From assembly GCA_035631035.1 (NCBI GenBank), contig DASQJL010000113.1, positions 131,703-195,702 on the forward strand: a stretch of DNA of 64,000 bases, read 5' to 3'. Shown here piece by piece: positions 23,011-25,582 of the stretch. A program made the position numbers and the translations under genes. The DNA comes from Candidatus Binatia bacterium (GTDB lineage: Bacteria > Eisenbacteria > RBG-16-71-46 > SZUA-252). The notes beneath the pieces were generated by a model. The model was not told the origin of the DNA. It made no database searches and saw only the letters and a program-made list of their open reading frames with translations. Each line of letters starts with the position of its first letter. Positions within the stretch are counted from its first letter, which is position 1.

Positions 23011-23519
23011 CGGATCGTCACCGCCCCGGTCCCGGGGGCGACCTCGACGGTGTCGTTCACGCCCTGGTAGGACAGGATCACCCGTCCGGGGGTCGAAAGC
23101 TCGACGCCGGCGCTGTCGCGCGGAACGCCGAAGTAGTCGAACGAGACGGCCGGGGTGGCGCCGAACGAAGCCGCCAGAACCGTCACCCCCCGATATTCGA
23201 TCTTCTGGTTGAAGACGACCCGAAGGGTTCGCGCCCGGTCGGCGGGATCCACGAGCGGCGTGGCCGGCGTGGGCGCAAAGACCGTGTAGCGTCCGGCCGA
23301 GGGCTCGAAGTAGAGGCCGTGAACCATGCGGGTGCCGATCGAGCGGTTCTGCGCGTAGCGGAGATCCGCGGCCACGCGGCGAGCGGTCGCGTCGAGCCGG
23401 ATCTCGCTCATCGCGGCGATCTTCGGGTACGCGATCCAGGCCAGGATCGCGATGATCGTGATGCCCAGGGCCAGCTCGACGAGGGTGAAGCCTCCCGCTC
23501 CGGCTCGCGCGCCCCTCAT
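23007..23519 (-). CDS. GspH/FimT-like minor pilin
   Basis: Real start at the internal ATG (MRGARAGAGGFTLVELALGITIIAILAWIA); the upstream part of the track ORF is artefact. ATGA overlap with the upstream DUF2723 gene. Confidence 0.65.
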   Translation of the reverse strand: MRGARAGAGGFTLVELALGITIIAILAWIAYPKIAAMSEIRLDATARRVAADLRYAQNRSIGTRMVHGLYFEPSAGRYTVFAPTPATPLVDPADRARTLRVVFNQKIEYRGVTVLAASFGATPAVSFDYFGVPRDSAGVELSTPGRVILSYQGVNDTVEVAPGTGAVTIR

Positions 23520-25582
23520 CCCTCGCCTCCGGCCAACGCGGGAACGCGGGACGGCGCCGGGGCGAGCCCGCCCGCGCGAAGGCCCCACTGGCGCGCGCGG
23601 GATCCGTCCCCCGCCAGCATCCACGCCCGCGAAGCGTCCGCCGCCAGCGCGGCCGAGGGCTCGACCCGGAACGCGCGCTCGAACCACAGCGCCGCCTCGC
23701 CCGGACGCCCCGCCGCCGCCAGGAAGACGGCGAGCCGCGCGCGCGGCTCCGGGTCGTACGGGGCCAGGCGGCACGCCGCGAGAAGCTCGTCGAGGGCGCG
23801 CTCCGGTTCGCCGGAGGCGGCGAGCGCCGCGGAGGCGTTCAGGCGCGCCCCCGGAATGTCGAATCCCACCCGGGCCGCGTCCAGGAACCATGGGAGCGCT
23901 TCGGCGATCCGCCCGCGCGACCAGAGCCACCTCGCGGCCGCGTCGGAGTAGGAGATCGCCATCTTTCGCGTCACGTAGTCGTAGCGCTCGGGGTGTCCGC
24001 CGAGCAGATCGCTCGACCGGGGCCAGTCGGCCGGCAGAACCCACGCCGGCGTCCCGTCCTGCGGGAGGTCATGGCCGGAGGCGCCCGGGACGCCACACGC
24101 TTCGTAGAGAAGCCCCCGCTGACGGAAGCGCACCCCCGAGGCGATCAGATCGCCCGGAGGAATCGGATAGCAGACCGGTGTCCGGTTCCGGCGGATCGCC
24201 TCGATCTCGGCGCCGTGCGCCGCGACGGTCCACCGCGACCGCGGAAGCGAGCGAAGCCGGTTCGGATCGCCGAAGATCCAACCGCGGCGATGGGTCAGGG
24301 CGACGTCGGGCCGCGTTCCCGAACGCGAGGCGTAGGCCGCCAGGAAGGTCTCGTTGTCACCGTCCAGCACGAGAGTGGCGCGCGCGGGCGCGGCGGCGAG
24401 GAGATCCCGGCCGTAGCGCTCCGGCAGGGTCCAGCGACTCCGGTCGGCCGCGGCGAAGCGACCGGGGAGGAGCGCCGCGACGACCAGAACGGGAGCGAGG
24501 GCGGCGGCCATGCGCACCCGGCGGCCGGTCCGCCGCCGCGCGAGGAGATCGCCCAGACGCTGCGCTCCGGTCCCGGCGAGCAAGGCTCCCGCCGCGACGA
24601 CGGGCGCGAGAAAGGGCGCGACCTGCGCCAAGTGCTCGGGATCCGGAGTGAAGCGGATCAACGCCATCAAGGCCGCCGGAACCGTCATGGCCGCCACCAG
24701 CACCGGCCCGACCACGACCGCCGGGCGCCGGGCTCGGTACCCGAGCAGGACCCCGCTTCCGGCGAGCACGGAGCCGAAGAGGCCCAGCGAGCCCAGCGAC
24801 AGAGCCGCCATCCCAAGCCCCTGGTCGACGGCGCGGTCGAGCCGGAAGGGATTCTGCGCCAGTCCGCCGTAGGTGCGGCGTAGCAGGTAGTCCGCCAGGC
24901 CGCCGATCCCCCGGACGTCGGTCCAGGCGAAGGGCGGCCCCGCGCTCCAGCGCACCGGAAGGACCCACGTGATCGAGGCGCCCGCCGCCGCCCAGGCCAG
25001 ACCCCGGGCGAGGCGCGGCGCGCTCCACCCTCGGCGCGCGAGCACCCAGGCCGATCCCGCGAGCGCCGGAAACAGAAGGGTCTGGTGCACGATCGTCGCC
25101 AAGCCGGCCGCGAAGAAATAGAGCGCTTCGTCGCGACCGGACGCGCGCGCCCTCCGCGCTCGGAACGCGAGAAGGGCGAGGGCGAGGAACGCGAGGAGGG
25201 CGAGCCCGTACACTTCCGCCTCGACCGCCGAGCTCCAGACGATCGACGCGGTGGCCAGGAGCGCGGTGGCGACCGCGGCGGCCGGGGCCCGGAGTCCCGC
25301 GCGACGCGCCAGCATCCAGAAGAGGCCGACCGAGAGCGCGGTCGACGCCGCGGAAAGGGCGTTCACGCGAAGCGCGAGGCCGCCCGCCGGAATCGCCGCG
25401 GCGAGGCGGGCGAGCAGGACCCACAGCGGATACCCGGGTGGATGGGCGATCCCGAGTCCCTGAGCGGCGAGGATCAGCTCCCCGCTGTCTCCCGCGCCCA
25501 CGCCGCGCGACAGGGTGAGCGCATACAGAACCGCCGCGGCCGCGGCCGCGAGGCATCCCTGCTCGGTTCGGGAGAATCGCAT
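23516..25582 (-). CDS. DUF2723 / PMT_2-family (GT-C fold glycosyltransferase-like) polytopic membrane protein with C-terminal TPR repeats
   Basis: [30 protein letters not shown] is the hallmark DUF2723 motif. It is followed by many TM helices and a C-terminal region of TPR-like helical repeats. Confidence 0.65.
   Translation of the reverse strand: [688 protein letters not shown]

Follow-up and report, generated by a model that had tools for sequence, protein, structure and literature searches.

A TMEM260-like GT-C glycosyltransferase gene adjoining pilA in a type IV pilus operon of an uncultured bacterium: a candidate pilin O-glycosyltransferase

Glycosylation of type IV pilins has effects on the stability and the function of the pilus and gives protection from pilus-specific phages (PMC11841053; bioRxiv 10.1101/2020.04.19.049825; 10.1101/150227). 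In Pseudomonas aeruginosa, the D-arabinofuranosyltransferase TfpW O-glycosylates Ser/Thr residues of group IV pilins and is encoded directly downstream of pilA; this 646-aa GT-C enzyme, for which ArnT is the nearest modelling template, has 11 transmembrane (TM) helices, a cytoplasmic N-terminus and a periplasmic tetratricopeptide repeat (TPR) domain, and carries the motifs DDX in periplasmic loop 1 and YX6PFX7P in periplasmic loop 4 (bioRxiv 10.1101/2020.04.19.049825). There, pilA may also be followed directly by the gene for TfpO, whose target is the C-terminal Ser of its pilin; enzymes of this type transfer preassembled O-antigen units from the lipid-linked lipopolysaccharide pathway (bioRxiv 10.1101/2020.04.19.049825). 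A GT-C/TPR glycosyltransferase as an accessory gene of pilA is, in other words, an already established arrangement. Here we analyse a 64,000-nt stretch of contig DASQJL010000113.1 (assembly GCA_035631035.1; hereafter the window), in which a type IV pilus operon carries, directly after pilA, the gene of a 688-aa protein related to human TMEM260 (hereafter GT). We propose, with a probability of roughly 0.6, that GT is a periplasm-facing O-glycosyltransferase dedicated to the pilin PilA and supplied by a polyprenyl-phosphate-sugar donor.

The only characterised relative of the bacterial family to which GT belongs is a human congenital-disease enzyme, TMEM260, a protein O-mannosyltransferase whose structures were solved by cryo-electron microscopy (PMC10214176; bioRxiv 10.64898/2026.03.17.711096). 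Mutagenesis showed that D52 and H67 in loop 1, R264 and Y267 in the donor-loading loop, and D441 are each essential; D441 is the general base, located in the Rossmann-like domain beside the acceptor Thr, while R355 in TM helix 10 contacts the mannose, and the R355A variant keeps ~20% activity (bioRxiv 10.64898/2026.03.17.711096). In the same work, F349 and V352 contact the residue after the acceptor Thr, an Asn ladder in the TPR domain (N602, N638, N642, N680) aids acceptor recruitment, and a co-translational mechanism is proposed at the translocon of the endoplasmic reticulum (ER). A 2023 PNAS paper on TMEM260 mentions bacteria only as 'distant homologs in bacteria'. The bacterial family is very large, with 18,300 representatives when the cutoff is set at E<=1e-10 and 3,409 when it is set at E<=1e-30, and a full-text literature search returned no paper that ties DUF2723/TMEM260 homologs to pilins or gives a bacterial member a function. 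An earlier note on this DNA, made from the sequence alone, had called DUF2723 proteins largely uncharacterised; this holds for the bacterial members, which remain unstudied, but not for the human enzyme, whose O-mannosyltransferase activity is proven.

The window has a GC content of ~70%, and long spurious open reading frames (ORFs) are common in it, several of which overlap the GT ORF on both strands. The GT ORF, which starts with ATG, is a genuine gene, because it matches PF11028 at 77 bits (cutoff 24.2 bits) over residues 32-183, has 173 homologs in the databases, shows a third-position GC content (GC3) of 0.80 in its own frame and lies in kept synteny. One of the homologs, an NCBI protein encoded on a 207-kb contig of a metagenome-assembled genome (MAG), is 100% identical. 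PF11028, the former DUF2723, now bears the Pfam name 'Protein O-mannosyl-transferase TMEM260-like', and a phmmer comparison with the human TMEM260 chains (9rql, 9rqm, 9rqn) gave an E value of 3.3e-26, GT residues 9-433 aligning with residues 29-466 of 9rql, a span that takes in the membrane core and the first part of the luminal domain.

In this alignment, human D52, H67, R264, Y267 and D441 correspond to D32, H47, R235, Y238 and D409 of GT. All five are invariant in 45 orthologs (alignment A1); of 43 relatives that share 20-35% identity, 40, 43, 36, 36 and 43, respectively, have them. The first two belong to a loop-1 motif (G-D32-S-G-E ... H47-P-P-G-Y-P-L-W) within residues 31-54. On sequence, GT is thus a member of the TMEM260 family that holds all of its primary features, R355 and the Asn ladder being counted as secondary ones, and it looks like an active enzyme. 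The clade of orthologs has in addition an invariant motif of its own, P313-D314-x-E316-H317-x-x-Q320, at the periplasmic start of TM10, where H317 and Q320 would, by the sequence alignment, correspond to human F349 and V352.

An AlphaFold2 (AF2) model of GT built from the 45 orthologs (pLDDT 89.8, pTM 0.91) predicts a cytoplasmic N-terminus and a GT-C core in which periplasmic loop 1 contains two short helices and the donor-loading loop holds R235 and Y238. The core is followed by a Rossmann-like domain with D409 (codon 24356-24358) as the predicted catalytic base, and then by a C-terminal TPR domain. A Foldseek search of the Protein Data Bank (PDB) with this model returned the protein O-mannosyltransferases (PMTs) as the best structural match, at ~9-10% identity in the structural alignment. 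The TMEM260 chain 9rql was not among its matches, presumably because the fold library ends at April 2026, and the tie to TMEM260 is accordingly drawn from sequence. At E<=0.01 there was no PMT, PMT_2 or Wzy_C match in Pfam; membership of the PMT family and of the Wzy_C-type oligosaccharyltransferases was on these grounds excluded. Most of what the earlier note had read from the letters agrees with these data: the 688-aa DUF2723 protein with its hallmark motif is borne out by the ORF list and the PF11028 match, the C-terminal TPR-like repeats appear in the AF2 model as eight helices, the structure comparison with GT-C transferases that it had asked for gives PMTs as the best match, and the position directly downstream of a pilA ending in NVSAYSSY was confirmed, as was the ATGA overlap (23516-23519) of the GT stop codon with the start of the GspH-like pilin gene, whose product has GspH and N_methyl Pfam matches. 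Its description of GT as PMT_2-like survives only at the level of the fold.

Whether a pilin gene accompanies GT was followed by scanning a single genome for each GTDB species, which found 468 relatives, with 76 loci kept. At loci with enough flank, linkage was scored separately on the two sides: upstream, it required a prepilin ORF on the same strand no more than 800 nt away, and downstream a pilin ORF within the same distance. Among the orthologs (48-73% identity, mostly Ca. Eisenbacteria MAGs) an upstream pilin ORF was present in 30/30 loci and a downstream one in 28/28, and the upstream pilin was, wherever complete, a pilA ortholog ending in Y-S-[ST]-Y. The distant homologs, which have 24-35% identity and come from Planctomycetota, Hydrogenedentota, Kiritimatiellia, Actinomycetota and further groups, had a pilin upstream in only 3/35 loci and downstream in 1/33. 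These figures show that pilin linkage is a trait of one clade and not of DUF2723 proteins generally, so that the co-occurrence of DUF2723 genes with pilA, which the earlier note had proposed to check, is universal in the ortholog clade but does not extend to the family.

The three distant exceptions with pilA (L033, L034, L041), together with a further locus obtained from a PilA-seeded metagenome scan (L083), encode GTs that share just 30-35% identity with that of the window. The adjacency of pilA and GT is found in three layouts, namely the standard operon, pilA-GT-pilMN in L034, where no minor pilins stand between GT and pilMN, and pilQ-pilA-GT in L083. Because the adjacency outlasts these rearrangements at such low identity between the GTs, the conserved unit is pilA plus GT, and not GT plus the minor pilins.

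Two side observations were made on these genomes. A locus of Ca. Kerfeldbacteria (candidate phyla radiation; L071) has a distant TMEM260-like gene (26% identity), and ~1.35 and 3.1 kb downstream of it lie two ORFs with a prepilin motif, of 255 and 237 aa; the association with pilins could have arisen independently here or be due to chance. The taxon labels are also mixed: the protein identical to that of the window is labelled Ca. Binatia and most orthologs Ca. Eisenbacteria, while close orthologs in the same synteny bear labels of at least seven phyla or classes (P0001, L001, L003, L014, L023, L029, L030), among them Bacteroidota, Omnitrophota, Hyphomicrobiales, Limnocylindrales, Dormiibacterota and Acidobacteriota, probably owing to mis-binning or mislabelling of MAGs rather than to horizontal spread.

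The PilA of the window is a prepilin of 126 aa (MFRSKSES/GFTLIELV...NVSAYSSY) with a mature form of 118 aa and without Cys. When 35 GT-linked PilA sequences were aligned, the mature length was 118 aa (117 in L083, 119 in L034), a single Cys occurred only in L034 and L083, and every sequence, those of L033, L034, L041 and L083 included, ended in an invariant Y-S-[ST]-Y. The nearest other pilins (L084-L086, L101; 41-48% identity) have 133 aa and end in GENNW, GEASW or GENSY; their operons run pilB-pilC-pilA and then a second pilin of 136-140 aa, with no GT between. Given this correlation between tail and GT, and the precedent of the C-terminal Ser modified by TfpO, S116 or S117 in the Y-S-[ST]-Y tail would be the leading candidate acceptor site, and the conserved T90 and T105 are further possible sites. 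A stretch of PilA that resembles the sequon of human TMEM260, G-G-W-x-Y-[T/N/I/Q/L/V], was also considered and rejected as the site, the position that would match the acceptor not being conserved. A single-sequence model of PilA reached a pLDDT of 53.9, with only the N-terminal helix formed.

Some genomes may carry extra pilin copies. Two orphan pilA genes, L080 (2015-2395) and L081 (239-727), are 81-83% identical and have the YSSY tail; they lie outside type IV pilus operons, among unrelated neighbours, some of them on the opposite strand. They were rejected as natural cases of a pilA without GT: as orphan copies outside the pilus operon they are uninformative on the loss of GT.

Taking into consideration that (i) GT always stands directly after the major pilin gene in the ortholog clade, (ii) its closest sequence relative and its best structural matches use lipid-monophosphate sugars and (iii) the phosphate-binding Arg is kept, we infer that PilA is most likely the acceptor and a polyprenyl-phosphate monosaccharide the donor. 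The suggestion of the earlier note that GT may modify the major pilin is, to that extent, supported by the pilA adjacency and by the conserved catalytic residues, with the glycosylation itself staying conditional. In the mechanism that we envisage, the membrane core would bind the lipid-linked monosaccharide at the periplasmic face through D32, H47, R235 and Y238. The N-terminal helix of PilA would enter the inner membrane and its C-terminal domain would cross unfolded, so that the pilin would be modified while emerging in the periplasm, ahead of pilus assembly. The TPR domain would capture an extended segment of PilA, the Rossmann-like domain would bring a Ser/Thr hydroxyl next to D409 as general base, and transfer of the sugar would proceed with inversion, in parallel with the co-translational model for TMEM260 at the ER translocon. 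By homology, a hexose such as mannose is the default expectation for the sugar. By analogy with TfpO and TfpW, the modification could serve to mask the pilus surface, for example against pilus-specific phages, or to stabilise the pilin. In its most specific form the proposal would make GT a pilin O-mannosyl- or O-hexosyltransferase that recognises the Y-S-[ST]-Y tail at the exit of the Sec translocon, and the first of the bacterial TMEM260-type enzymes for which a dedicated substrate can be identified; TfpW and TMEM260 may then also go back to a single ancient family of protein O-glycosyltransferases guided by TPR domains. We put this forward tentatively, and on balance doubt it.

Several observations weigh against the main proposal. 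The correlation between tail and GT is weak evidence, being phylogenetically confounded (one clade against one sister clade), and the invariance of Y-S-[ST]-Y could instead reflect pilus packing. The two orphan pilins have the same tail away from any GT and, outside pilus operons as they are, could be modified only in trans. The translational coupling of GT is with the minor-pilin and machinery genes rather than with pilA, and its target could for that reason be another pilus protein. In the alignment, an invariant residue of the clade, P323, stands opposite human R355, and N582 is the only conserved Asn in the TPR region of the 45 orthologs; with the mannose contact replaced and the Asn ladder cut to one residue, GT may use another sugar than human TMEM260 and bind its acceptor in another way. 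Three Pfam scans of ORFs across the 64-kb window found no gene for lipid-linked sugar synthesis (polyprenyl-phosphate glycosyltransferase, GtrA-like flippase, DprE1/DprE2, DPPR synthase), and the host organisms are uncultured MAGs.

The coupling and the family-wide picture would fit a broad-spectrum periplasmic O-glycosyltransferase, with a scope like that of mycobacterial Pmt or Neisseria PglL, or an enzyme whose pilus target is a minor pilin or the NHL-propeller protein, a candidate tip protein. The GT gene has the ATGA overlap with its GspH-like neighbour and is transcribed together with the minor pilins, 32 of the 35 distant homologs are unlinked to pilins, which means that the family as a whole serves other substrates, and the human enzyme has several receptors as substrates, on whose beta-strand domains it acts. 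We nevertheless regard this as unlikely: the pilA-GT pair is kept in L034, whose locus lacks minor pilins, and in L083 with its rearranged operon; the orthologs form a tight subfamily, with scores that fall from 993 to 428 bits at the next representative; and the clade-specific motif at TM10 aligns, by sequence, with the acceptor-contact positions of the human enzyme. Less probable still is a multifunctional enzyme of the TfpW type, which would polymerise D-arabinofuranose (D-Araf) oligomers from decaprenyl-phosphate-arabinose (DPA) and transfer them onto several pilin Ser/Thr residues. The window GT has the beginning of the corresponding loop-4 motif, Y238-x6-P245-F246, but the Pro occurs in only 33/45 and the Phe in 26/45 orthologs, and the final Pro, at +8, is absent; loop 1 reads G-D-S-G-E and not DDX; the ORFs scanned across the window included no gene for DprE1, DprE2 or DPPR synthase; and the nearest sequence relative of known function is a mannosyltransferase. 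We give least credence to a non-protein acceptor, such as lipid A or a peptidoglycan-linked or other envelope glycan (compare ArnT, Emb and Aft), or to a structural role in pilus assembly through the TPR domain, as in the pilotins PilF and PilW.

The minus strand of the window holds a single compact type IV pilus operon, from pilB through a response regulator gene (Table 1). From GT to pilQ the genes overlap or almost abut, and the only sizeable spacers are those between pilC and pilA (136 nt) and between pilA and GT (101 nt). The latter folds at a minimum free energy (MFE) of -70.8 kcal/mol (z -5.06), with two strong GC hairpins; these lack a U-tract, a scan of the spacer for consensus terminators found none, and Rfam gave no match for them. 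A hairpin of 10-13 bp follows pilA in nearly all of the 35 related loci (L001-L052), and its stem sequences are lineage-specific. As the hairpin recurs while the stems differ between lineages, it suggests a conserved attenuator or a stabiliser of the mRNA 3' end, which would part high pilA expression from that of the downstream genes; control of this kind is reported for pilin accessory genes in other bacteria (PMC11841053).

Three further products of the region deserve a description. The ORF annotated as PilM is matched by PilM_2 over residues 45-361, and its length points to a putative PilM-PilN fusion, although no PilN match was obtained for it (18901-20634). The gene at 20631-22097 encodes 488 aa with a weak PilX_N-like start (E 0.0066, below the Pfam cutoff) and a six-blade NHL beta-propeller (TEN_NHL, E 5e-41); at an operon position typical of PilX/PilY1, this protein could be a tip adhesin. 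Upstream of pilB there is a 372-aa ORF (29290-30408, minus strand) with no Pfam match, and near it, at 30296-31345 on the same strand, a multihaem cytochrome with Cytochrome_C554 and MtrC-like matches.

Table 1. Features of the pilus operon and of GT in the window, listed in the direction of transcription; coordinates count from the first letter of the window.
Feature	Coordinates	Strand	Basis
pilB, assembly ATPase with MshEN domain	27419..29110 (29110 end approximate)	-	T2SSE and MshEN matches
pilC, platform protein	26201..27415	-	T2SSF match
pilA, probable major type IV pilin	25684..26064	-	N_methyl domain; likely ATG start at 26064 with AGGAGG ahead, stop codon ending at 25684; 35-sequence alignment
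Second hairpin, overlapping the pilA stop codon	25660-25687	-	RNA folding
13-bp GC-rich stem-loop	25625..25654	-	RNA folding
GT, TMEM260-like PF11028 GT-C glycosyltransferase, 688 aa	23516..25582	-	Pfam
GT-C transmembrane core of GT, residues 1-379	24446..25582	-	AF2, 11 TM helices over residues 5-379; TMEM260 alignment
Loop-1 sugar-recognition motif of GT, residues 31-54	25421..25492	-	D32 = human D52 and H47 = human H67 in alignment
Periplasmic Rossmann-like domain of GT, residues 386-535	23978..24427	-	AF2, beta-alpha elements 403-497
Periplasmic TPR domain of GT, residues 536-672, eight helices, predicted acceptor-binding module	23567..23977	-	AF2
GspH-like minor pilin	23007..23519	-	GspH and N_methyl Pfam matches; ATGA overlap with GT
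PilV-like minor pilin	22618..23010	-	N_methyl match, prepilin motif
PilW-like minor pilin	22094..22636	-	Weak N_methyl match; downstream pilin kept in orthologous loci
PilX_N-like N-terminus and NHL-repeat beta-propeller, candidate tip protein	20631..22097	-	Pfam
PilM with long C-terminal extension, 577 aa	18901..20634	-	PilM_2 covers residues 45-361
pilO	18320..18961	-	Pfam
T2SSC/PilP-like ORF	17809..18306	-	
pilQ, secretin	16466..17812	-	Pfam
Response regulator	16053..16454	-	

The pilin glycosyltransferases known so far come from a few Proteobacteria, and the present locus would extend the arrangement of pilA plus an accessory glycosyltransferase to an uncultured soil phylum. A large and functionally unstudied bacterial family gains, in one clade, a substrate hypothesis that can be tested. 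The pilA and GT pair would offer a tractable two-gene bacterial model for TMEM260-type catalysis, in particular for the unusual catalytic base in the Rossmann-like domain, and the Y-S-[ST]-Y tail a possible new short acceptor motif for glycoengineering.

Set beside the described systems, GT shares with TfpO/PilO the position after pilA, and the C-terminal Ser of the TfpO pilin has a parallel in the Y-S-[ST]-Y tail; the proteins themselves are unrelated, as GT is to PglL, judging by the missing Wzy_C domain. Donors of the TfpO/PglL type are undecaprenyl-diphosphate-linked, whereas the nearest relatives of GT use polyprenyl-monophosphate monosaccharides. Likeness to the PMT family (yeast Pmt1, Pmt2, Pmt4; GT39) is structural only: there is no MIR match either, and in place of the luminal MIR domains of PMTs the extracytoplasmic module of GT consists of a Rossmann-like and a TPR domain. 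With TMEM260 (PDB 9RQL, 9RQM, 9RQN), on the other hand, GT shares both the Pfam family and a three-part layout of 11-TM GT-C core, Rossmann-like domain and TPR domain ('wrist, palm, fingers'). It differs from the human enzyme in being bacterial and periplasm-facing, in its eight TPR helices against a five-helix fold, and in not keeping R355 and the TPR Asn ladder; its donor lipid would be a bacterial polyprenol instead of dolichol, and its acceptor a putative type IV pilin target instead of an IPT-domain substrate. An NCBIfam scan gave no match of GT to a TfpW model. TfpW, compared with GT by description and motifs, differs in loop 1, where GT has G31-D32-S33-G34-E35 with Ser or Ala at position 33 across the family, and depends on D-Araf (DPA) pathway genes of the kind not found among the ORFs scanned across the window. 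TfpW is nonetheless the nearest bacterial precedent in function and architecture, since both genes directly follow the major pilin gene and the published description of TfpW, with its 11 TM helices, cytoplasmic N-terminus and large periplasmic TPR domain, agrees with the AF2 model of GT.

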